A DNA stretch of 64,000 bases, from contig CAYHBZ010000002.1 of the NCBI GenBank assembly GCA_964355175.1, positions 204,537 through 268,536 of the forward strand, read 5' to 3'. The notes beneath the pieces are model-generated. The model saw nothing but the letters and a program-made list of their open reading frames with translations. It did no database searches and had not been told where the DNA came from. This DNA comes from an uncultured Gammaproteobacteria bacterium. GTDB taxonomy: Bacteria; Patescibacteriota; Patescibacteriia; Magasanikbacterales; GWA2-37-8. Below are positions 7,727 through 56,812 of this stretch, in pieces. The position numbers and the translations under genes were made by a program. Within the stretch, counting starts at the first letter, position 1; the number at the start of each line of letters is the position of its first letter.

Positions 7727-8036
7727 TTAAAAAATTTGTCCACATTTTTAATTTGACCTTCTTAAAATTTACTATTACTATACTCGTAGTTCTTTAGGTA
7801 TTAAACTCTATCAAACGTGGAAGTGAGGTGTGATTCCTCCACTGTGCCGCAACGGTAAAGCCCCGACTGAATCGGGGATAAGTCCGGTCTTCGTATGATA
7901 TGGTTTGTAGCTATCCTCGAGCAAGGACGAGCGAAAACAGGCCCCAAGAAAGTGCACTTATCTGTATTTTCTTGGGTTCTGATTCTCGGCGTCCTTGTTG
8001 TTTCAAGGACGCTTTTGTTTTCTCTGGAGGTGCACG

Positions 8037-19331: not shown

Positions 19332-19404
19332 TGTCAGGGTAGCTCAGCTGGTTAGAGCACGGCATTCATAACGCCGAGGTCGGGAGTTCGAGCCTCCCCT
19401 CTGA
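19332..19404 (+). tRNA. tRNA-Met (anticodon CAU; could be initiator or lysidine-Ile type)
   Basis: cloverleaf folded by hand: acceptor GTCAGGG/CTCTGAC, D-stem GCTC/GAGC, anticodon loop TTCATAA, T-stem GGGAG/CTCCC; preceded by TTGACT-N17-TAGTAT promoter. Confidence 0.8.
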
Positions 19405-19433
19405 CACAAATTATCTAAAATTTGAATAGTTTA

Positions 19434-31694: not shown

Positions 31695-32095
31695 TGGTAG
31701 TATTAGTCCTGTTTATAGTGGATGATCGTCCCCGACCTAGTCGGGGGAGGAAAGTCCGAACACTTTCTTTGAAAAAAGAAAAAAGGCAGTGGGTAACGCC
31801 CACCGGTTTGGCGGCAACGTCAAACAAGGGAAAGCGGCACAGAGACAATACTACCCCGACTCAGTCGGGGGAAAGGTGAAAAGAATATGGAAGTTCTGAC
31901 TCTAGAACAGAGCTACCATATACCGACCGTTGTGAGACGGTCTGGTGCCAAGCCCTGCCTGGGTGCAAGAGCAGCCTATGAGAGAGACATAGGAAAAGTT
32001 CGCTCGCTTGATTTTGGTAGCAATACCAGAGCTAGATAAATGATCGTCGTGTCTTGCTAAACACAAGATTTACAGAATTCGGCTTATAGCTGTAA
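31695..32095 (+). ncRNA. rnpB: RNase P RNA (bacterial type A)
   Basis: P4 halves GAGGAAAGTCCG and ACAGAATTCGGCTTAT; GGGTAACGCC, ACAGAGACAAT, GGTGAAAAG conserved blocks; P3 hairpin CCCCGACCTAGTCGGGG; ends approximate. Confidence 0.8.
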
Positions 32096-32103
32096 ACAAA
32101 AAA

Positions 32104-34613: not shown

Positions 34614-34697
34614 TGGGCGAGAGAGGACTCGAACCTCCACAGGATTGCTCCCACAGGCTTCTGAGACCTGCGCGTCTACCAATTCCGCCACTCACCC
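34614..34697 (-). tRNA. tRNA-Leu (anticodon CAG), long variable arm
   Basis: hand-folded: acceptor GGGTGAG/CTCGCCC, anticodon loop CTCAGAA, T-arm GGAGGTTCGAGTCCTCT. Confidence 0.75.
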
Positions 34698-44776: not shown

Positions 44777-44849
44777 TGCGCCCAGATGGGATTGAACCAT
44801 CGACCTATTGCTTATAAGACAATTGCTCTAACCACTGAGCTATGGGCGC
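44777..44849 (-). tRNA. tRNA-Ile (anticodon UAU)
   Basis: hand-folded: acceptor GCGCCCA/TGGGCGC, D-arm TAGCTCAGTGGTTAGAGCA, anticodon loop CTTATAA, T-arm GGTCGATGGTTCAATCCCATC. Confidence 0.75.
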
Positions 44850-50622: not shown

Positions 50623-50651
50623 TTGACAAGAATGCCTAAAAGTAGTATAAT
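50623..50651 (+). promoter_or_regulatory. consensus sigma70 promoter TTGACA-N17-TATAAT
   Basis: perfect hexamers, 17-bp spacer. Confidence 0.55.
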
Positions 50652-50657
50652 TATCTG

Positions 50658-50777
50658 TTATTTAAAAATAACACAAATACCCAAGTCGTGCCTACTGTTA
50701 CTTTTTTAGAGAGAAGTAAACAATTGGTCTGGTGTATTGTTGTATATAAACTCTCTCTAATCGGAGAGTTTTTTTAT
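50658..50777 (+). ncRNA. candidate about 120-nt small RNA (promoter to intrinsic terminator CTCTC-TAATCG-GAGAG + T7)
   Basis: consensus promoter followed 100 nt later by hairpin + U-run; no ORF. Confidence 0.3.
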
Positions 50778-50780
50778 TCT

Positions 50781-50822
50781 GTTCTTTACAAAAGATATTG
50801 AGTCGATACTAAACAAAGAAGA
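50781..50822 (+). promoter_or_regulatory. island promoter module GTTCTTTACAAA (first of four TTCTTTACAAT-type copies)
   Basis: motif repeated at 52055, 54416, 55792, each upstream of an island gene. Confidence 0.45.
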
Positions 50823-50943: not shown

Positions 50944-51279
50944 ATGAACTGTGCTATCCTGATTTCCCTCGTCGCCTTGTTCTGTATCGTGATCATCATC
51001 CGCGCCAAGGAATTTTCATGGCATGCATACGGCCTGGTGCTCGCCGTTGAGTTCGTCGCGGAAATCTTTCGCGAGAACAACAAGATCGGGGACACCGCCG
51101 AGAACGCCATGTTCTGGGCGGCCATGTTCGGTCTCCTCGTCCCGCTTTTCTTGGCGGTGTGGTTTCGTACTGGCAAGAAGGCCGGTCTCACTCCTCGCGA
51201 GCGTGGCCTGGCACTGGCGGCTAATGCTGCCTTGGCAGATAAGGATGCCAGCGTCCATTCCGACAGCAGGCGTCTCTAG
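50944..51279 (+). CDS. GC-rich small 3-TM membrane protein, paralog A
   Basis: SD GGAG before ATG; paralogous to 51565-51894 (shared R-x-KEFSW-x-A...LVLAV-FV core); upstream part of the 50827 ORF is hairpin-dense and probably 5'UTR. Confidence 0.5.
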   Translation: MNCAILISLVALFCIVIIIRAKEFSWHAYGLVLAVEFVAEIFRENNKIGDTAENAMFWAAMFGLLVPLFLAVWFRTGKKAGLTPRERGLALAANAALADKDASVHSDSRRL

Positions 51280-51287
51280 TAGGTTTA

Positions 51288-51367
51288 GGACTTTGCCTGC
51301 GCAAAGCGCACAGATTATCAAAGGTTGAGCTAGAAAAAGTAGCTCCTGATGATATCTGAAAAAGTCT
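51288..51367 (+). ncRNA. structured RNA motif A (GGACUUUG ... CUGAAAAAGUC closing helix with two internal hairpins)
   Basis: paralogous to motif B with compensatory changes in internal hairpins. Confidence 0.45.
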
Positions 51368-51478
51368 ATCCCCAAGTGTCTGAAGGGCGAAAGTCGCCCA
51401 ACATTACGATGACAGTCGTAATGATTATCAACACGAAGTGAGGGATAAAAAATCCGAAGCGCTGTCACGCTTCGGAAC

Positions 51479-51528
51479 CCTGTCTGCGAATTTTGTTCGC
51501 ACTGATGAGTCCTTTAGGACGAAACAGG
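51479..51528 (+). ncRNA. hammerhead ribozyme, type III (copy 1)
   Basis: CCUGU-C|UGCGAA-UUUUG-UUCGCA-CUGAUGA-GUCC-UUUA-GGAC-GAA-ACAGG: complete catalytic core, GUC cleavage triplet, stems I/II/III. Confidence 0.85.
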
Positions 51529-51564
51529 AAAGATCTTTCACAAACGGCGCGTGCGCCTTATAGG

Positions 51565-51894
51565 ATGGATGCTGTCATGGTCATGCATGGTTTTTTCGTT
51601 GAGTACGGGTTCCTCGTGCTCGTCTTCATGGCGGTCTTCTGTGGGATCATCACTTACCGTGGCCGCGAGTTTTCGTGGCCGGCGTTTCTGGTGCTTCTTG
51701 CGGTGGACTTCGTGGTCAGCTTTTTTCAGAATCGAGAAGAGGCCAACCTCATTTTCGCCTGGGATTTTCTGGCCAACTGGACGGTTGTGATCGGGATCAT
51801 GGTCCAGATCGGCATGGGACTTTGGTTCAATACACATCCTCCTCGTTGCCCGAAATGTGGGTATAGCCTCCATTTGAGGCCCCCACCATCGTAG
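51565..51894 (+). CDS. GC-rich small 3-TM membrane protein, paralog B, ending in C-x2-C
   Basis: start at MDAVMVM after the ribozyme; C-terminal CPKCGY. Confidence 0.5.
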   Translation: MDAVMVMHGFFVEYGFLVLVFMAVFCGIITYRGREFSWPAFLVLLAVDFVVSFFQNREEANLIFAWDFLANWTVVIGIMVQIGMGLWFNTHPPRCPKCGYSLHLRPPPS

Positions 51895-51899
51895 GTTTT

Positions 51900-51987
51900 G
51901 GACTTTTCCTTCTCGAGTAAAATCGAGAACAGTATTGCAGACAGTTGAGACGATTAAATTCGCTCCTGTCGGGATCTGAAAAAGTCC
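51900..51987 (+). ncRNA. structured RNA motif B (GGACUUUU ... CUGAAAAAGUCC closing helix)
   Basis: same architecture as motif A; hairpins TCTCGAG-TAAAA-TCGAGA and GAGACGA..TCGCTC replace those of A. Confidence 0.45.
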
Positions 51988-52025
51988 ACAATCCCTTAGT
52001 TTCCAAAATTTGGAAATTGAGAGAT

Positions 52026-52046
52026 GAAAATCACTCTGTGGTTTTC
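52026..52046 (+). terminator. island hairpin module GAAAATCAC-NNN-GTGGTTTTC (copy 1 of 3)
   Basis: same hairpin at 54387-54407 and 56741-56762, each just upstream of a TTCTTTACAAT promoter or the island edge. Confidence 0.45.
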
Positions 52047-52054
52047 ATTAAATG

Positions 52055-52086
52055 GTTCTTTACAATTTATATCTACGCTAAAAAAT
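52055..52086 (+). promoter_or_regulatory. island promoter module GTTCTTTACAATTTA ... TAAAAAAT
   Basis: repeated motif. Confidence 0.45.
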
Positions 52087-52290
52087 AAATGGCCTCCGCT
52101 ATCTATATCTTTTTGTTTCAAGAAAATATAGACAGCGGAGGTCAAAGAGACAGCCGTGGTGAAGGTTGGGGCCGACGGGCCTCCATCCTCCTTATTAAGG
52201 GGAAAACAGGATGGGGGTCGCAAGTTGCGTCCCCAACTAAGTTCATCGCGGCGTTGACGGACGCCAAATTTCCAAGTTCCGGAGGATGCC

Positions 52291-54219
52291 ATGTTCAAGA
52301 ATTTCTTCAATCTCACGCTCTACACCAACACCTCCACCAAGGGTCCGATCGTCGAAAACTTCTTCCGGCGGATCGTCATCGCGATCTGCTGTCAGGGGAC
52401 CTTCGACTGGATCATGTGGTACTTCGCCTTGGTGTTCGCCATGCACAACAGCGTGCTGGCGGCCATCTTGGCGACGGTGATCGTGCTGGGCGTGGTCCAG
52501 CTCGACATCGCGATCGTGACCGCCGACGACAAGGATGTCAACGTGAAGCGGCGTTGGGCCAGCCTGGCCTGGCGTTTCCTCTTCACGTTCCTGGTCGCGG
52601 GCATCACGTCGGTGCCGCTCGAGCTGAACTGGTTTCAGAGTGAGATCACGCACAGGCTCGACGCCAAACAGAAGAAGGAGATCGACCAGATCCGGACGTC
52701 CGCCATGGTCCAGGAGAAGGCGCGCATCGACAAGGAGATCGAAGACGTCACCGCCCAACTGGCACACGAAGCGTCCTCGACGCAGGGCGCCGCGGTGGCT
52801 GACCTGCAGAAGTACGAAGGTGATCGGGCGGCGATACTGGCGCAGATGGTGACGAAGGAGAGCGACGAAGAGGCGGCGTTCCTGAAGCGAATCGATGATA
52901 AGGAGAAAGACGCGTACGAGGAGTCGGCTGGTAAGGGAGCGAGTGGCCAGAGGGGCTGCAAGGACTCATGCAGGCTGAAGCTCGGGCAGGCGAAACAATG
53001 GCGTGAGGATCTCGCCAACAAGAAGATCGCTCACTCCCAGGCGGTCATCGACTTCAACAAGGAAACCCAAGACCACCTCGTTTCGCTGCGCGCGAAGCGG
53101 GACACGACCACTGGCTCCAGCCTCAAAGACATGAAAGAGCAGTTGGGGGGGCTCCGCAAGGAGCGCAAGGACAAGGTCGAAGAACTCCGCAAGATGGACC
53201 CCGAACGGGTTGCCGACCTCTATGGCGGCAAATTCCAGAAGGAATTCGGCTTCCAAGACAGGTACGATACTCTCGAACAGATGCGTTTGGAAAGCTCGGC
53301 CGTCAACTGGGCAATCTGGGCATGCCGCGTCATTGCGGCCATCATGGGGTTTCTCGTGCTTGGTATGGCGCTCTCGGCGCCTACGGAAGTGAAGGAGTAC
53401 TTCTCAGTGGCAGCACAGGCGGAGGCTGGCGATCCGTACGCCAAGAAGGTCATGGGCATCATGGGCTACGAGAATTTCAAGGACGCCGCCCTGACTCCGA
53501 AGGCCCGCAAGGCTCTCGTGGAACTGTTCATGGTTCGTCAAGAACTGTGGGCCGTCGTGATGGAGCTGGAACAGCAACTGGTCAGCGTCGTCGTCCCCGA
53601 CGAACGCACCGGACTGTATCTGAGCAAGCTCCGGATCGAAGGTATGATCCATGCCATGTGGGTGCAGAAAGGCGCCGACGCGATGAAAAAGCTCGGCAAG
53701 GCTGAAGAAGAGGTGCGGCGTGCCGGTCAGAAGGTCCCGTCGTGGCCGACGGACAAGCTGGGTCAGGACCCGCGCCTGACCGACCCGTGGAAGATCGACG
53801 AACGGCGACTGGCCAGCTTCGGCTGGGAGTCTCCCGAGGAGATCATCACCGCGGGCAAGCTGGGTCTCAAGAATATCACTGGCCATCGCCTCATGCTGCG
53901 TCAGCGGCTCGAGGAGATGGAGGCGACCCTCCAGGAGAAGATCAGTGGCAACTCCACGGTCAGCTTCGAAGAGATCCGTCGCCATCAGAACCAGGGATAT
54001 CGCGAGAAGATCCTGCCGACGTTGAACGACATCCGGTCCAGCGAGGACGCCGTCCTCAAGGCGCACTTCGAGGTGCCCACCTGGCCGGATGACTTCGCCG
54101 ATCCGCGCGGTGGACTCTACCAGCGGCTCTGCCTGCTCTCGGAAGACGAGCTGCGTCAGCGCTATGACTGGAAGGGGATCGCCATGCCGGGACTGACCAC
54201 CCCGACCGCTACAGCGTAG
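52291..54219 (+). CDS. GC-rich 642-aa membrane protein: 3 N-terminal TM helices, about 230-aa coiled coil, 4th TM, C-terminal globular region (DUF4407-like architecture, tentative)
   Basis: SD GGAGG 5 nt upstream; TM and heptad-rich segments read from translation; 230-nt hairpin-rich 5'UTR. Confidence 0.6.
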   Translation: MFKNFFNLTLYTNTSTKGPIVENFFRRIVIAICCQGTFDWIMWYFALVFAMHNSVLAAILATVIVLGVVQLDIAIVTADDKDVNVKRRWASLAWRFLFTFLVAGITSVPLELNWFQSEITHRLDAKQKKEIDQIRTSAMVQEKARIDKEIEDVTAQLAHEASSTQGAAVADLQKYEGDRAAILAQMVTKESDEEAAFLKRIDDKEKDAYEESAGKGASGQRGCKDSCRLKLGQAKQWREDLANKKIAHSQAVIDFNKETQDHLVSLRAKRDTTTGSSLKDMKEQLGGLRKERKDKVEELRKMDPERVADLYGGKFQKEFGFQDRYDTLEQMRLESSAVNWAIWACRVIAAIMGFLVLGMALSAPTEVKEYFSVAAQAEAGDPYAKKVMGIMGYENFKDAALTPKARKALVELFMVRQELWAVVMELEQQLVSVVVPDERTGLYLSKLRIEGMIHAMWVQKGADAMKKLGKAEEEVRRAGQKVPSWPTDKLGQDPRLTDPWKIDERRLASFGWESPEEIITAGKLGLKNITGHRLMLRQRLEEMEATLQEKISGNSTVSFEEIRRHQNQGYREKILPTLNDIRSSEDAVLKAHFEVPTWPDDFADPRGGLYQRLCLLSEDELRQRYDWKGIAMPGLTTPTATA

Positions 54220-54386
54220 ATAGAGTGGAATCGCTCAAGTGCACAATGTCGCAGACAATTTCGCGACACGGTGACGAAGAGCAATTCTCAAAGGGTTAGG
54301 ACGCCCTGGTCCGAGCAGTGTCGAAAGATACTGCTCGGACCAAAGTCCTTCACTTAGTAGCTAAAAATATTTGGATACTGAGTGAA

Positions 54387-54407
54387 GAAAATCACTTTGT
54401 GGTTTTC
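54387..54407 (+). terminator. island hairpin module GAAAATCAC-TTT-GTGGTTTTC (copy 2)
   Basis: repeat of 52026-52046. Confidence 0.45.
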
Positions 54408-54415
54408 TTAAAAAA

Positions 54416-54455
54416 GTTCTTTACAATTTAGGTTATGGTAAAAATTGATTTTCAA
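54416..54455 (+). promoter_or_regulatory. island promoter module GTTCTTTACAATTTAGG
   Basis: repeated motif. Confidence 0.45.
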
Positions 54456-54581
54456 ATCTCGTACGCTTTGTGAGCATATTTTTTGTGCTTAAAAAGCGTA
54501 CGAGATCTTTTCCGTAGCGCCAACAATTTCTCAAAGATGCGCCCGAGATGTTATCGGATGTGCTTAGGGAAAATTCCAAAG

Positions 54582-55646
54582 AGGAACCTGATGCCAAAAT
54601 TTTGGCTTCTCGTCGCTCTCGTCTGCGCCATTGGGTGTGGACGCGAAGAGCGTCGATTCAATCAACCCGATCCCGCTTCGGTCGAACTGCAGAATTCTAT
54701 CGACGAGCGTGCCAAGCTGGCGCGTGAGAACAAGGAATTGCGCAAGAAGCTCGAAGCGGCGCAGCAGGTCAAGAAGCCCGTCGAAGATGATGAGCGCCTC
54801 TGCACTCTGGAGTACGCCAAGGCCAAGGATCCTGGGAAACTCGAAGCCATCACGGCCAAGTGGGCGGCGGCAAAGGCGGAATACGAGAAGCAGCTCGCCG
54901 AGCGGGAGAAGAAGATTTCAGAAGCGGAATCGTTGCCTAGTGACCCGCTTCCGGATTTCCCCTTTTCTCCTCCTTTGAATTGGGACATCAGTGTGCCCAG
55001 TCCGGGCATGAAGGCCATTTATGGAGAGGATAAACTCTGCCATTTGAAGGAGGTGGCGCAAGAACCGTTCCGGTCTTTCGGCGGCACGAACAACCATTGG
55101 AGGATGTTTATCCGCGAGGCCATGGACAACTTCCAGGACAACGACATCGAAGATGATCTAGAGTACGACGACTTTCGGTCATCCGTACGGACCATCGAGA
55201 TGCTGAAGGATCCGGGCGAAGGTCGCCAACTGGCCGATAATCTTCTAAGCGTCTTGGTCAAGAGTCCTACGTCCATGCAGTGGGCGGTTGGCTTGATCTT
55301 GCGCCTGGAAAATCAGGACTTCTTGAAGGTGCGTCTGCGGCGGCTCTACAAGGCCTCCAAGACTGACTTCGCGAAGCTCGACGCTGACATGCTGACCGCG
55401 CTCGGAAAGTACATGAAGGAGCATCCCGAGATCAAGGTGATGCAAAACCCCGGGAGCGATGTTTACGGTCCGGAGTTCGACTTCGGCCCTTTTGCCCAGG
55501 ACGGCAACTACTACAAGGGTCTGCTTTTCCGGTATTGGCGCTACAAGGAAGAAGTCCAGGGACGTGGCAAGGGAGACAAGTTCATTCGTGATCTGCAGAA
55601 GACCATGAAGGAGGTGGCCAAGGGCATGAAAGTCAATTTGCAATGA
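54582..55646 (+). CDS. GC-rich lipoprotein (lipobox AIGCG) with N-terminal coiled coil, unknown function
   Basis: start MPKFWLLVALVCAIGCG; heptad region ARENKELRKKLEAAQQ... Confidence 0.55.
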   Translation, partial: RNLMPKFWLLVALVCAIGCGREERRFNQPDPASVELQNSIDERAKLARENKELRKKLEAAQQVKKPVEDDERLCTLEYAKAKDPGKLEAITAKWAAAKAEYEKQLAEREKKISEAESLPSDPLPDFPFSPPLNWDISVPSPGMKAIYGEDKLCHLKEVAQEPFRSFGGTNNHWRMFIREAMDNFQDNDIEDDLEYDDFRSSVRTIEMLKDPGEGRQLADNLLSVLVKSPTSMQWAVGLILRLENQDFLKVRLRRLYKASKTDFAKLDADMLTALGKYMKEHPEIKVMQNPGSDVYGPEFDFGPFAQDGNYYKGLLFRYWRYKEEVQGRGKGDKFIRDLQKTMKEVAKGMKVNLQ

Positions 55647-55716
55647 CCGAAGCGACAATCGTCGCGTCGGTCTGCGCCATAACCTCGTGGGGGCCGATGC
55701 GAAAGTGTCGGTCCCC

Positions 55717-55777
55717 GGAGTCTGCCGGTTTTGCCGGCACTGATGAGTCCAGAAATTTATTTTCAAGGACGAAACTC
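55717..55777 (+). ncRNA. hammerhead ribozyme, type III (copy 2)
   Basis: GGAGU-C|UGCCGG-UUUUG-CCGGCA-CUGAUGA-GUCC-(16-nt loop)-GGAC-GAA-ACUC. Confidence 0.85.
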
Positions 55778-55791
55778 AAGTATAATAAATT

Positions 55792-55826
55792 GTTCTTTAC
55801 AATGTAGGTTGTGTAAAATAAATTTC
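55792..55826 (+). promoter_or_regulatory. island promoter module TGTTCTTTACAATGTAGG ... TAAAAT
   Basis: repeated motif. Confidence 0.45.
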
Positions 55827-55970
55827 TTGAAAAAGAAATGCGAGTACAATGTTTATTTTTACAAGTAAATAATGCACTCGTATTTCCAAAAGATGTTGTC
55901 TAGTTGGCCACGATGGTCAGCTGTGCAAGCATCGCGAGATCCCTCACCAATCGGGTGAGAGGAGGGTGCC

Positions 55971-56558
55971 ATGGTTCGTGGTTTCTGGTTTCTGGTGGTT
56001 CTGGCGGTGCTGATGGCGAGCTGCAACGGCAAGGGCGAGCGCGAGAAGCGGGATCAGAAGACCCACGAGGAGCTGATGAAGGGGCTCGATGGCGAGAACG
56101 AAGCCTGGAAGAAGCTCCCTGCTGAACCGCTCAAGCCTGTGGTGAACGAGGGCTTGCTCTTGCGGCACTCGCGCCCCCAGCCGCGTCCGTGGGTGGATCT
56201 GCCAGGTATGGCGACGCCTGTGGAGCTCGCAAAAGCGGCGACGTTGCACGACGGGGAACCCCGGGATCTGCTGGAGACGGTCCACAAATCCGTCCATCCG
56301 TCAGAATTCCTGGAAGGCGACCCGTCCCCGTACCTGGAGTTCAATGTCAGTGATCGGGTGGGTCGTAGCCAATACAGCCTGAAGCGTATCAAGGTGCTTG
56401 AGCGGAGTTGCCGCGCTGAAACCGTGGAGAGCCTCGAGATGTGCTTGTCGGAGCAGATCAGCATCCTCCTCATGCATGTCGAGGCTCTCGAGAAAGAGAA
56501 CGAGCGTCGGCACAAGGCGACGGCGAAGCTCAGGAATGCGATCAAGAAAAAGCGTTGA
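55971..56558 (+). CDS. GC-rich lipoprotein (lipobox MASCNG) with C-terminal coiled coil/basic tail
   Basis: MVRGFWFLVVLAVLMASCNGKGE; C-term EALEKENERRHKATAKLRNAIKKKR. Confidence 0.55.
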   Translation: MVRGFWFLVVLAVLMASCNGKGEREKRDQKTHEELMKGLDGENEAWKKLPAEPLKPVVNEGLLLRHSRPQPRPWVDLPGMATPVELAKAATLHDGEPRDLLETVHKSVHPSEFLEGDPSPYLEFNVSDRVGRSQYSLKRIKVLERSCRAETVESLEMCLSEQISILLMHVEALEKENERRHKATAKLRNAIKKKR

Positions 56559-56639
56559 GCCGTGCGACGAAATTCGTCGCGAAGTTCACCTACAACCTCA
56601 ACGGGATCAGGCGCGCGAAGTACGCGTGTCTGGTCCCAA

Positions 56640-56700
56640 GGAGTCTGCCGGTTTTGCCGGCACTGATGAGTCCAAAGAATTTTGTCTAGGACGAAACTCA
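56640..56700 (+). ncRNA. hammerhead ribozyme, type III (copy 3)
   Basis: GGAGU-C|UGCCGG-UUUUG-CCGGCA-CUGAUGA-GUCC-(15-nt loop)-GGAC-GAA-ACUCA; stem I/III identical to copy 2, loop II differs. Confidence 0.85.
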
Positions 56701-56767
56701 AAAATAAAATCCTTTAGTCTCTGTTCGGAGATTGAGGGATGAAAATCACGCAAGTGGTTTTTGTCAA

Positions 56768-56812
56768 AACAAAAAAACCACCGATTCTCTAAACGGCGGT
56801 TTTTTGTTTTTA
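56768..56812. terminator. bidirectional terminator at island/gyrB junction
   Basis: ACCACCG-loop-CGGCGGT hairpin flanked by A7 and T6. Confidence 0.65.

Follow-up and report, generated by a model that had tools for sequence, protein, structure and literature searches.

The 64,000-nucleotide stretch of DNA analysed here (the window) contains three genuine type III hammerhead ribozymes (HH1, HH2 and HH3), each of them with the complete core and three helices, on the coding strand of a GC-rich chromosomal island. RNA processing is the most reasonable role for them and, in particular, we consider it fairly likely that they end the transcript of each gene, giving accessory-island mRNAs with self-cleaved 3' ends.

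Three canonical hammerheads

51477..51530, + strand: HH1, type III hammerhead, core 51479-51528, RF00008 52.1 bits (E 1.3e-8, whole window)
55715..55780, + strand: HH2, type III hammerhead, core 55718-55777, RF00008 40.0 bits (E 5e-6)
56638..56702, + strand: HH3, type III hammerhead, core 56641-56699, RF00008 35.3 bits (E 1e-4)

The bases at all three sites read as the original prediction had claimed: the hammerheads are of type III and lie on the coding strand, their core is invariant, and stems I and III show compensatory differences between the first copy and the other two. HH1 (51479-51528) reads CCUGU-C^UGCGAA-UUUUG-UUCGCA-CUGAUGA-GUCC-UUUA-GGAC-GAA-ACAGG, and HH2 and HH3 share the reading GAGU-C^UGCCGG-UUUUG-CCGGCA-CUGAUGA-GUCC-(16 or 15 nt)-GGAC-GAA-ACUC, the two being 93% identical across the first 42 nt. 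Loop II, for which a variation of 4-16 nt had been described, measures 4, 16 and 15 nt in HH1, HH2 and HH3, respectively. C17 lies at 51484, 55722 and 56645, with cleavage predicted 3' of each, in agreement with the 5'-OH nucleotides that had been proposed (51485, 55723 and 56646). The scan suggested along with the prediction, against Rfam RF00008 (Hammerhead_3), gave + strand matches at all three sites; the gathering score of the family is 48.5 bits, which is exceeded by HH1 and not reached by HH2 and HH3 because of their long loop II and 4-bp stem III, their cores being canonical and not defective despite the sub-threshold scores. The pattern CTGATGA-N(4-34)-GAAA occurs seven times in the 64 kb, against 1.3 expected, and only HH1, HH2 and HH3 among these seven have the full CUGAUGAG...CGAAAC core together with all three stems. 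An Rfam scan of 49-59 kb gave no match to other ribozyme families, even at E<=10. The three hammerheads are very probably catalytically competent.

An island of membrane-protein and lipoprotein genes

The ribozymes are located within a GC-rich, hypervariable island of roughly 6 kb (about 50.8-56.8 kb), between secE and gyrB, whose genes encode membrane proteins and lipoproteins, so that the description of it as an envelope-protein island was accurate.

50623..50778, + strand: left island edge, with consensus promoter, structured leader and intrinsic terminator
50944..51279, + strand: paralog A, first island gene, 111-aa multi-TM protein, GC3 0.73
51565..51894, + strand: paralog B, 109-aa multi-TM protein with a C-terminal CPxCG motif, GC3 0.67
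52291..54219, + strand: 642-aa membrane and coiled-coil protein, DUF4407 (Pfam PF14362, E 8.5e-19), GC3 0.82
54483..55646, + strand: 387-aa ORF, lipoprotein, GC3 0.69
55971..56558, + strand: 195-aa lipoprotein, signal sequence LMASC, GC3 0.77
56771..56812, strandless: bidirectional terminator (A-run, hairpin, T-run) at the right island edge, read from the sequence

GC3 is 67-82% in the island genes versus 42-47% in the flanking genes, and in related genomes the flanks keep 85-98% protein identity, with the island genes lost, replaced or just 25-87% identical. The closest genome match is a Candidatus Magasanikbacteria MAG, and the host is an AT-rich, Magasanikbacteria-like CPR genome, as had been supposed. 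The true start of paralog B may be the ATG at 51577; its homologues are 88% identical in L005 and 35-48% in L004, L006 and L058 (L numbers denote related loci). Relatives of the DUF4407 protein at the same island site show 87%, 63% and 48% identity, and a search for phage or plasmid matches to this protein found none. The 387-aa ORF is probably a 351-aa lipoprotein from the ATG at 54591 (MPKFWLLVALVCAIGC), 351 aa being the length that one gene caller gives, and homologues of the 195-aa lipoprotein (44-67% identity) adjoin the same hammerhead in L036/L038.

In the left-edge element, conserved in L004, L005, L006, L038 and L040, a promoter (TTGACA-17-TATAAT, 50623-50651) is followed by a leader about 95 nt long and then by an intrinsic terminator (50748-50778); AGAGAGA and UCUCUCU might pair as an antiterminator. 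The right-edge terminator is common to the island and the convergent gyrB, and in L004 and L036/L038 the same bidirectional terminator comes immediately after the last hammerhead. The prophage-like context evoked in the original prediction does not apply to this island, near which no integrase or phage genes were found: the setting is a non-prophage chromosomal one.

Position of the ribozymes relative to the genes

51453..51476, + strand: anchor hairpin of HH1, directly 5' of stem III, UCCGAAGCG-loop-CGCUUCGGA, -15.3 kcal/mol, z -3.8
55689..55716, + strand: anchor hairpin of HH2, directly 5' of it, -23.8 kcal/mol, z -3.1
56603..56637, + strand: anchor hairpin of HH3, directly 5' of it, -29.1 kcal/mol, z -7.0

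HH1 sits between paralog A and paralog B. Stop codons are found 72 nt before HH2 (387-aa lipoprotein gene) and 83 nt before HH3 (195-aa lipoprotein gene), HH3 itself preceding the terminator that the island has in common with gyrB. These gene positions had been given correctly, but rather than as 5'-UTR elements of the gene downstream, the ribozymes are better seen as closing the unit of the gene upstream, because in every window copy the stop codon is 70-200 nt upstream, the hairpin on the 5' side is conserved and the downstream element is variable. Taking together the three window copies and about 30 related ones, a gene ends 58-262 nt upstream of the hammerhead, and stem III is preceded, at 1-4 nt, by the end of a hairpin whose sequence varies and whose mean energy is -16.9 kcal/mol versus -10.5 kcal/mol in control windows (mean z -3.5). 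The anchor hairpin of HH1 is found at an unchanged position in L004, L005 and L006, the L006 copy carrying a compensated change (CUCAAGCG/CGCUUGAG), and that of HH2, unlike its HH3 and L004 counterparts in sequence, retains both position and pairing. In the type II relatives, stem III itself forms a hairpin terminating at the cleavage site, so the 5' product is hairpin-capped in both topologies. Downstream of 29 distinct type III pattern hits, strict criteria detected a promoter-like box in 9/29 and a terminator in 7/29; several additional terminators were recognised by eye, and other hits have the next ribosome-binding site downstream.

50781..50791, + strand: promoter-like box GTTCTTTACAA, upstream of paralog A, exact 11-mer repeat
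51277..51379, + strand: post-stop module P, copy 1, structured ~95-nt element (nhmmer, pair covariation)
51889..51999, + strand: post-stop module P, copy 2, after paralog B (nhmmer, pair covariation)

Module P, whose copy 1 starts at an AGGTT overlapping the stop codon, has no family match in Rfam; nhmmer gives at least 16 copies (E 1e-13 to 1e-27), all of them within secE-gyrB islands, with a compensatory change in 11 of the 18 predicted pairs. The exact GTTCTTTACAA 11-mer occurs four times in the 64 kb, always within the island, the other three boxes being found upstream of the DUF4407 gene (52055), the 387-aa gene (54416) and the 195-aa gene (55792), and it follows hammerheads or hairpins in L004, L005, L006, L040, L060 and L065. 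In a promoter scan, these sites come out as TTTACA-N16/17-A/T-rich hexamers, which are weak (9/12 consensus positions); if the box were no promoter, HH1 and HH2 would lie within a polycistronic RNA, as first proposed.

How transcripts would be ended

The ribozymes would be part of the + strand mRNAs of the island, which consists of gene units, each comprising a promoter-like box and a GC-rich membrane-protein or lipoprotein ORF, with structured UTRs on both sides of the ORF. Three of the five units have a 3' UTR that closes with a stable hairpin and, immediately after it, a hammerhead that would fold after transcription and, we infer, also cut in vivo, 3' of its C17. The cut would free the upstream mRNA, with a 3' end formed by the hairpin, 5-8 nt and a 2',3'-cyclic phosphate, and thereby uncouple it from the RNA transcribed after it. 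The hairpin would protect the new 3' end, and the downstream RNA would begin with a 5'-OH and might be the next cistron, a read-through into the next unit or an antisense gyrB RNA. For clustered bacterial hammerheads, cleavage has been observed in vitro and in vivo and mRNA processing has been suggested as their role (PMC3088659; PMC6765202).

The self-cleavage into monocistronic units foreseen in the original prediction stands as a role in RNA processing, but not for every junction. The hammerhead is missing after paralog B and after the DUF4407 gene (2/5 window units), and the related islands have one to three copies each and several junctions without any, so that the term "monocistronic units" holds partly and the ribozyme is dispensable for the expression of a unit. 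In addition, Felletti and colleagues reportedly saw in 2016, with E. coli reporters, that the removal of the terminator by 3'-UTR ribozyme cleavage lowers expression, so the net effect of cleavage on stability could be negative.

Conservation and the exchange of genes

Covariation of the helices is strong: when 30 distinct type III relatives from other contigs are aligned, 98.2% of the cells are paired and 12/17 pairs have changes on both sides, versus 29-50% paired when the 3' partner is slid 1-3 columns as a control. When raw pattern hits were tested without bias, all three unconstrained stem I positions were paired in 86 of 89 distinct instances, with 21 different triplets in use, against a mean of 15 and a maximum of 26 after shuffling. 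The orthologous copies of HH1 in L004, L005 and L006 have changes only in the loops and in one compensated stem I pair, HH1 being kept, with loop changes only, where the DUF4407 protein of the island has 87% and 63% identity. In the HH2 homologues of L004 (4823-4887) and L036/L038, the stems are maintained and loop II varies. The DNA homology between the window and L004 is made up of the spacers 51310-51544, 55690-55779 and 56635-56708 (87-90% identity) and stops at the hairpin/hammerhead edges, the genes in between being unalignable or missing. The hairpin-plus-hammerhead blocks are the best-conserved DNA of the island.

This homology, restricted to the spacers, also speaks for another explanation, which we regard as unlikely: the hammerhead-bearing spacers might be the joints of an exchangeable gene-cassette system, with units of GC-rich ORF, structured spacer and hammerhead being gained, lost and swapped through recombination between conserved spacers or through an RNA intermediate excised by two flanking ribozymes in the manner of retrozymes, which would make RNA processing secondary. 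Gene content does differ among related genomes at the secE-gyrB site between well-preserved flanks, the cargo is compositionally foreign (GC3 0.63-0.99 against a contig GC of 40-54%, both for the window and for about 25 other loci), a homologous cargo gene (40% identity, E 9e-22) appears in two chromosomal contexts (L058 and L068), and HH2 and HH3 are near-identical direct repeats bounding a 923-nt unit. Nevertheless, no integrase, transposase or reverse transcriptase was found within 10 kb on either side, several junctions have no hammerhead, the HH2-HH3 unit is protein-coding and not rod-like, and neither target-site duplications nor integron-type core sites came to light. Moreover, homologous recombination at conserved spacers plus strong functional-RNA selection gives the same pattern with no mobility role for the ribozyme.

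Folding in the native flanks

With its native flanks, HH1 adopts the full hammerhead as its minimum-energy fold, whereas in the minimum-energy folds of HH2 and HH3 the GGAG pairs with an upstream CCUC, beating the 4-bp stem III. Stem III is short (4-6 bp) in the type III copies, which favours product release. The alternative fold would suit a regulated switch, an idea that we find quite improbable, in which HH2 and HH3 are conditional ribozymes whose stem III 5' strand, GGAGU, pairs either with the upstream CCUC (anchor hairpin extended, ribozyme off) or with ACUC (on), a factor or condition tuning cleavage and hence the half-life of the lipoprotein mRNA. The L004 and L036 homologues do have CUC or CCUC at the same position upstream of the hairpin; however, the alternative pairing comprises only 3-4 bp, with no covariation to draw on, it is absent from HH1 and most other family members, and the tertiary contacts by which hammerheads are stabilised are not part of energy models. 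Finally, that the motifs are inactive relics of a degraded phage or mobile element, kept merely through the close kinship of the genomes, is very hard to believe, since, although HH2 and HH3 miss the RF00008 cut-off and the composition of the island is foreign, the core is invariant and the loop and stem changes are compensated across loci whose neighbour proteins are just 25-63% identical, the best-conserved DNA is that of the ribozyme blocks, and phage genes are lacking nearby.

Comparison with known systems

The arrangement has several relatives among known systems, and the novelty originally ascribed to it was overstated. Perreault et al. 2011 already described multiple bacterial hammerheads flanking single genes or short blocks of changing identity, with cleavage in vitro, in examples such as Clostridium scindens, Azorhizobium caulinodans and Agrobacterium tumefaciens (PMC3088659). 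As in those clustered or prophage hammerheads, several copies with canonical cores lie on one strand next to inconstant genes, and the role proposed for those arrays was likewise the cutting of long transcripts into gene-length mRNAs (PMC3088659). Unlike them, which belong to prophages and are near integrases, the copies described here are in a non-prophage island of an AT-rich CPR genome. Among the collection hits, the phage-like copies are mostly type II and lie about 21 nt ahead of a ribosome-binding site and start codon, in GC-rich contigs, whereas the window copies are type III, have an extra 5' hairpin and are placed 3' of genes.

The open stem III, the loop-capped stems I and II, the CUGAUGA...GAAA core and the GUC cleavage triplet are those of RF00008, but HH2 and HH3 differ from its viroid, satellite and genomic members in the 15-16-nt loop II, the 4-bp stem III and the resulting 35-40 bits, and are DNA-encoded within mRNAs, outside any circular RNA replicon. 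Retrozymes also have type III hammerheads as direct repeats bounding a unit of roughly 0.6-1 kb (923 nt here), and double cleavage is predicted to yield an RNA able to re-form the hammerhead once circularised; in contrast, their units are non-coding and mobilised by the reverse transcriptase of a retrotransposon (PMC4918200), and the HH2-HH3 unit encodes a lipoprotein with no reverse transcriptase found nearby. With integron cassette arrays, the island shares same-strand, diverse and compositionally foreign ORFs, structured repeats from the stop codon onwards and a content that varies among related strains at a fixed site. However, IntI integrase was not found within 10 kb on each side, the repeats are of RNA type (G·U pairs on the + strand, ribozyme) without RYYYAAC/GTTRRRY cores, and, unlike integron cassettes, the island units appear to bear their own promoter-like boxes.

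RiboJ-type parts are synthetic ribozyme insulators. In bacterial 3'-UTR ribozymes (Felletti et al. 2016, as cited in PMC6765202 and PMC5502269), self-cleavage within the UTR resets the transcript end and uncouples a gene's expression from the neighbouring sequence. Such 3'-UTR ribozymes and insulators are engineered reporters or single natural cases, whereas the combination of hairpin and type III hammerhead is natural and recurrent, with about 30 distinct metagenomic copies. The clustered-hammerhead arrangement has been known in bacteria since 2011; new here are the lineage and the non-phage setting and, as details, the CPR host, the hairpin on the 5' side and a GC-rich cargo.

Three type III hammerheads on one strand

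Within 5.2 kb of the + strand of the window stand three hammerhead ribozymes (HH1, HH2 and HH3), all of them in a GC-rich gene block between secE and gyrB (hereafter, the island), and three are likewise found in L004, a Candidatus Magasanikbacteria MAG (L-numbers designate contigs from genome, metagenome and viral collections). No other full hammerhead core is present in the 64-kb window. The sequence elements, the C17 and the cleavage positions agree with the original prediction, and the Rfam family RF00008 (Hammerhead_3) matches all three sites.

Hammerhead cores of the window (cleavage predicted at ^)
51479-51528, + strand, HH1: CCUGU-C^-UGCGAA-UUUUG-UUCGCA-CUGAUGA-GUCC-UUUA-GGAC-GAA-ACAGG; C17 at 51484, predicted first 5'-OH nucleotide at 51485
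55718-55777, + strand, HH2: GAGU-C^-UGCCGG-UUUUG-CCGGCA-CUGAUGA-GUCC-(16 nt)-GGAC-GAA-ACUC; C17 at 55722, predicted first 5'-OH nucleotide at 55723
56641-56699, + strand, HH3: elements as in HH2, with a loop II of 15 nt; C17 at 56645, predicted first 5'-OH nucleotide at 56646

With RF00008, HH1 reaches 52.1 bits, above the gathering threshold of 48.5, whereas in a 10-kb scan HH2 (40.0 bits, E 5e-6) and HH3 (35.3 bits, E 1e-4) fall below it, due to their long loop II and short stem III and not to any fault in the core. The catalytic core (C3-U4-G5-A6-N7-G8-A9, G12-A13-A14, A15.1-U16.1, H17) is complete in the three copies, in the form CUGAUGA...GAA-A with U16.1 and C17, and the cmscan alignments contain three helices in each, stem III being open and the other two capped by loops (6-7, 4-5 and 4-5 bp for stems I, II and III, respectively). 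The minimum-energy structure of HH1 in its native flanks is the entire hammerhead fold; stem I is also present in the minimum-energy folds of HH2 and HH3, and stem II in that of HH2 only, since its strands pair elsewhere in HH3. By eye, the UUUUG of loop I could pair with A-runs in loop II of HH2 and HH3, a candidate for the loop-loop contact that would permit fast cleavage at physiological Mg2+; loop II of HH1 is only UUUA. A chance motif is ruled out by the Rfam E-values (2e-9 to 1e-4 over 10 kb) and by covariation. We conclude, on the grounds of sequence, that HH1-HH3 are genuine hammerheads for which catalysis is predicted. Other ribozyme families (twister, twister-sister, pistol, hatchet, HDV-like, Drum) gave no Rfam match at E<=10 in 49-59 kb, including the hammerhead-free spacers.

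Related copies and covariation

With loop I fixed as UUUUG, the search pattern of this exact subtype matched one genome only, that of L004, whose three type III hammerheads lie at the same chromosomal site, and it gave no match in viral contigs or JGI metagenomes. Leaving loop I free retrieved 103 metagenome and 20 viral stretches. Two contigs with relatives of the island's DUF4407 gene (L005 and L006, 87% and 63% identical) retain HH1 in place, with an unchanged core and differences confined to loops I and II.

When 30 distinct type III copies are aligned, the core columns show no variation, standard pairs occupy 98.2% of the cells and 12 of the 17 pairs have changed on both sides; the covariation score was reached by none of 500 shuffles, and slid controls pair at 29-50%. 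Part of that pairing is forced by the way the copies were selected, and for this reason an unbiased test was run on raw pattern hits whose three inner stem I pairs had been left as unconstrained N's. All three positions pair in 86 of 89 distinct instances, comprising 21 different triplets (shuffle mean 15, maximum 26).

A hypervariable island of foreign composition

The island (~50.8-56.8 kb) is bounded by the minus-strand secE/nusG/rplK genes on one side and by the convergent gyrB on the other. Its GC content is 51-60%, versus ~41% elsewhere, and the GC3 of its five + strand ORFs is 0.67-0.82, versus 0.42-0.47 for gyrB, nusG, rplK and queA; the island spacers have just 36-46% GC. These ORFs encode two paralogous 3-TM proteins of ~110 aa (paralogs A and B), a 642-aa DUF4407 membrane/coiled-coil protein (Pfam E 8.5e-19) and two lipoproteins, of 387 and 195 aa. 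Searches with the DUF4407 protein and with paralog B returned three relatives and one, respectively, all very close and too few for a deep protein family.

A prophage or plasmid origin is disfavoured on several grounds. No integrase, transposase or reverse transcriptase is among the genes called within 10 kb either side of the island, PHROG gave nothing credible (the best hit, E 9e-4, is a coiled-coil-like segment of 62 residues in the DUF4407 protein), PADLOC returned no noteworthy match and the DUF4407 protein had no tblastn match in 50,697 phage or 72,556 plasmid records. An assembly artefact is ruled out by identical junctions in independent ENA, NCBI and Logan assemblies. Two independent short-read Logan contigs (L002 and L003) both stop at window position 55746, inside HH2; HH2 and HH3 share 32 identical bases and then 93% identity over 42 nt, and this common sequence likely disrupted k-mer assembly. 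Hammerhead repeats may fragment such islands systematically in metagenome assemblies.

Syntenic contigs, spanning one or both flanks of the secE-gyrB site, comprise about seven distinct versions of the island. Throughout them, the flanking proteins are 74-98% identical (mostly at least 85%), and the island genes are missing, have been replaced or show 25-87% identity. In L004, for instance, rplK, nusG and gyrB are at 97%, 98% and 92%, paralog B is at 35%, and two other TM genes occupy the place of the DUF4407 and lipoprotein genes; in L038 the flanks are at 92% (rplK), 95% (nusG) and 74% (gyrB, partial), DUF4407 is at 48% and the 195-aa lipoprotein at 44%, and the paralogs are lacking. What the window and L004 share as DNA inside the island is the spacers (51310-51544, 55690-55779 and 56635-56708, at 87-90% identity), and the shared blocks stop at the hairpin and hammerhead edges. 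The label Magasanikbacteria-like is used only for contigs syntenic with L004.

The window also holds other RNA genes, listed here as a side observation; an AdoCbl-like match slightly under the cut-off occurs in L068 as well.

Other RNA genes of the window
7792-7936: AdoCbl riboswitch (63.3 bits)
31710-32102: bacterial class A RNase P RNA (177 bits)
19333-19406: tRNA
34614-34697: tRNA
44777-44849: tRNA

Anatomy of the spacers

The spacers are built from a small number of recurring elements.

Spacer and edge features of the island
50623-50785: left edge with promoter, leader and terminator
50781: GTTCTTTACAA box
51277-51379: post-stop module (nhmmer)
51453-51476, + strand: anchor hairpin of HH1
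near 51533: degenerate GTTCTTTACAA box
51889-51999: post-stop module (nhmmer)
52009-52049: repeated element TTYGGARATTGAGRGATGAAAATCAC...GTGGTTTT
52055: GTTCTTTACAA box
54292-54356: post-stop module, reduced variant
54370-54410: repeated element TTYGGARATTGAGRGATGAAAATCAC...GTGGTTTT
54416: GTTCTTTACAA box
55689-55716, + strand: anchor hairpin of HH2
55792: GTTCTTTACAA box
56603-56637, + strand: anchor hairpin of HH3
56724-56765: repeated element TTYGGARATTGAGRGATGAAAATCAC...GTGGTTTT

In every hammerhead a stable hairpin (the anchor hairpin) ends 1-4 nt short of stem III; its position is constant and its sequence variable, and its mean folding energy in 34 related copies is -16.9 kcal/mol, versus -10.5 in control windows (mean z -3.5). 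That of HH1, read on the minus strand (51476-51453), is followed by TTTTTT and is the top-scoring terminator-like site of the region, and may additionally act as a stop for antisense transcription.

The post-stop module, of ~95 nt, starts at an AGGTT overlapping the stop codon and follows paralogs A and B as well as at least 14 genes of related islands (L004 3040-3142, 3948-4054 and 4638-4746; also L005, L006, L009, L017, L040/L058 and L081). At least 16 copies were detected by nhmmer (E 1e-13 to 1e-27), compensatory changes are seen in 11 of the 18 pairs predicted for the module, GGACUUU and AAAGUC may form an outer helix, and no counterpart exists in Rfam.

Exact matches to the 11-mer GTTCTTTACAA number four in the 64 kb, and all fall inside the island; each directly follows a hairpin, terminator or hammerhead and precedes an island gene by 160-240 nt, a placement that is repeated in related loci. 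The box scans as a weak promoter (TTTACA-N16/17-A/T-rich), and may serve as a promoter particular to the island or as a site bound by a protein. The AT-rich hairpin TTYGGARATTGAGRGATGAAAATCAC...GTGGTTTT is placed just before a GTTCTTTACAA box or the final terminator, and may serve as a weak terminator for the hammerhead-free units. At the left edge, a consensus sigma-70 promoter (TTGACA-17-TATAAT) is followed first by ~95 nt of conserved, structured leader and then by an intrinsic terminator, an arrangement also found in L004 (2340-2502), L005 (1540-1668), L006 (296-425), L038 (8665-8800) and L040 (425-560). The conserved AGAGAGA of the leader's central hairpin could pair with the UCUCUCU 5' arm of the terminator. 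By its sequence, the leader, for which there is no Rfam family, looks like an attenuator, a riboswitch-like leader or a small RNA.

Two context classes among the hammerhead hits

Among the pattern hits, type II and type III hammerheads differ in their surroundings. Of the 77 distinct type II hits (median contig GC 59%), often two to four per contig, 70 end ~21 nt ahead of a ribosome-binding site with its start codon, as do all 20 hits in viral contigs, every one of them type II. The 29 distinct type III hits (median contig GC 44%; one to three per contig) always lie 58-262 nt past a stop codon, after an anchor hairpin, and what comes downstream of them is an intrinsic terminator, a promoter-like box or the ribosome-binding site of the next gene. 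The ORF upstream of a type III hammerhead is strikingly GC-rich for its contig (GC3 0.63-0.99), and its products are diverse: TM proteins, acidic soluble proteins, a DeoC-like enzyme. In both topologies the predicted 5' cleavage product ends in a hairpin, which is stem III itself in type II and the added anchor hairpin in type III. GC-rich phage-like contigs carry type II arrays with this same spacing, the classical clustered arrangement, with four copies in L024, three each in L033, L101 and L113, and two each in L080, L105 and L124.

In AT-rich metagenome contigs (40-54% GC; L022/L089, L047, L053, L057, L065, L068, L076, L077, L097 and L110), single genes or pairs of diverse functions and a GC3 of 0.7-0.99 end 58-150 nt before a hairpin and type III hammerhead, often with a terminator next. 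The association between GC-rich cargo and hammerhead therefore reaches beyond the secE-gyrB island.

Proposed role and alternatives

The original prediction had placed the hammerheads with the downstream genes, one of them in a 5'-UTR, and had the transcripts cut into monocistronic units. They stand instead at the 3' ends of units, after the stop codon and behind the anchor hairpin, and they are missing from two of the five units of the window and from several junctions of related islands, which counts against a strict need for the ribozyme. What holds of that interpretation is that the ribozymes are real, judging from their sequence, and that a part in RNA processing is plausible.

Given this anatomy, the hammerhead is best read as the element that closes a gene unit at its 3' end. 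Cleavage after C17 during transcription would free the upstream mRNA with a hairpin-capped 2',3'-cyclic phosphate end, and the RNA transcribed downstream would have a 5'-OH at its start. This would separate the gene from the unit that follows or, in the case of HH3, from antisense transcription running into gyrB. If the GTTCTTTACAA boxes are not promoters, HH1 and HH2 would merely divide cistrons, as first proposed. Such a 3'-end role refines the standard idea of polycistronic processing without contradicting it. Identity, covariation, conservation and context statistics are observed here; cleavage in vivo and its effects on mRNA stability are predicted.

Could the spacers do more than process mRNA? 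We put forward, as a speculative and rather unlikely reading, an undescribed gene-cassette architecture of CPR bacteria, in which foreign GC-rich ORFs of diverse function are set in AT-rich adaptors (box, post-stop module, anchor hairpin and type III hammerhead), forming a hypervariable secE-gyrB array in Magasanikbacteria-like genomes and single islets elsewhere, and in which the adaptor would help in the capture, exchange or expression of foreign genes.

That the cassettes are themselves mobile appears unlikely, even if the content varies at a fixed site, the joints are conserved, the cargo is foreign in composition and one cargo family is found in two chromosomal contexts: L058 (847-1269, minus strand) and L068 (4085-4528, + strand) carry homologous GC-rich genes (40% identity over 139 aa, E 9e-22), one in a secE-gyrB island and the other elsewhere, each in a hammerhead-bearing islet. 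Against mobility, no recombinase or reverse transcriptase was found within 10 kb either side, and homologous recombination between spacers would be enough to explain the pattern. An integron-like array is ruled out by the lack, over the same 10 kb on each side, of IntI (no recombinase domain) and by the absence from the island spacers of attC cores (RYYYAAC / GTTRRRY), the spacers instead starting with AGGTT and being closed by GGACUUU/AAAGUC. Nor is the HH2-HH3 unit a retrozyme, in which direct repeats with hammerheads flank a non-coding unit that accumulates as circular RNA and is reverse-transcribed, since the HH2-HH3 unit encodes the 195-aa lipoprotein and has no reverse transcriptase within 10 kb; and an Obelisk- or viroid-like nature is rejected because its fold is branched and not rod-like, with 15% of the minimum-energy base pairs on one diagonal.

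A regulated switch is very doubtful. In silico, the 4-bp stem III of HH2 and HH3 loses to a CCUC:GGAG pairing between upstream sequence (55684-55687 in HH2, 56597-56600 in HH3) and the GGAG of the stem III 5' strand (within 55717-55721 and 56640-56644), and the homologues in L004 and L036 have CUC at the equivalent position. As modelled, this could be a regulatory (on/off) alternative helix or a limit of energy models that are blind to tertiary contacts; its basis is just 3-4 bp. That the hammerheads are relics is highly improbable: covariation speaks against it, and so does the fact that no other DNA of the island is as well conserved as the spacers.

Relation to known hammerhead arrays and significance

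Canonical hammerheads between bacterial genes are unsurprising in themselves, and arrays of this kind have been known since 2011 (Perreault et al. 2011, PMC3088659), so that the locus is not new in kind. Those clustered hammerheads, of which two or more share a strand and bracket single genes or short blocks, as in the window and L004, cleave (three in vitro and one in vivo), and their arrangement is that of our type II class. Unlike the loci of that study, near integrase or phage genes, the present one lies beside secE/nusG/rplK and gyrB, and no integrase was called in the 10 kb on either side. The anchor hairpin is not mentioned there, and no paper joining a hammerhead with DUF4407, the Candidate Phyla Radiation or Patescibacteria was found in the literature searched, relative to which the CPR host, the non-phage island, the anchor hairpin, the association with GC-rich cargo and the post-stop module appear new.

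According to a 2019 review (PMC6765202), the function and shared gene associations of the hundreds of bacterial hammerheads are unexplained, although roles in 3'-UTR and polycistronic processing have been proposed. To that question the locus and its ~30 relatives from metagenomes bring a context of unusual regularity, with the hammerhead always 3' of a GC-rich accessory gene, always after a hairpin and often before a terminator or promoter-like box, which leads to a testable hypothesis, namely that ribozyme-set, hairpin-capped mRNA 3' ends insulate accessory genes from their neighbours. The adaptor reading, if true, would give bacterial hammerheads a concrete biological role. The locus documents hammerheads, as read from sequence, in CPR bacteria, and its hypervariable envelope-protein island may bear on the episymbiotic lifestyle of these hosts or on their interaction with phages.
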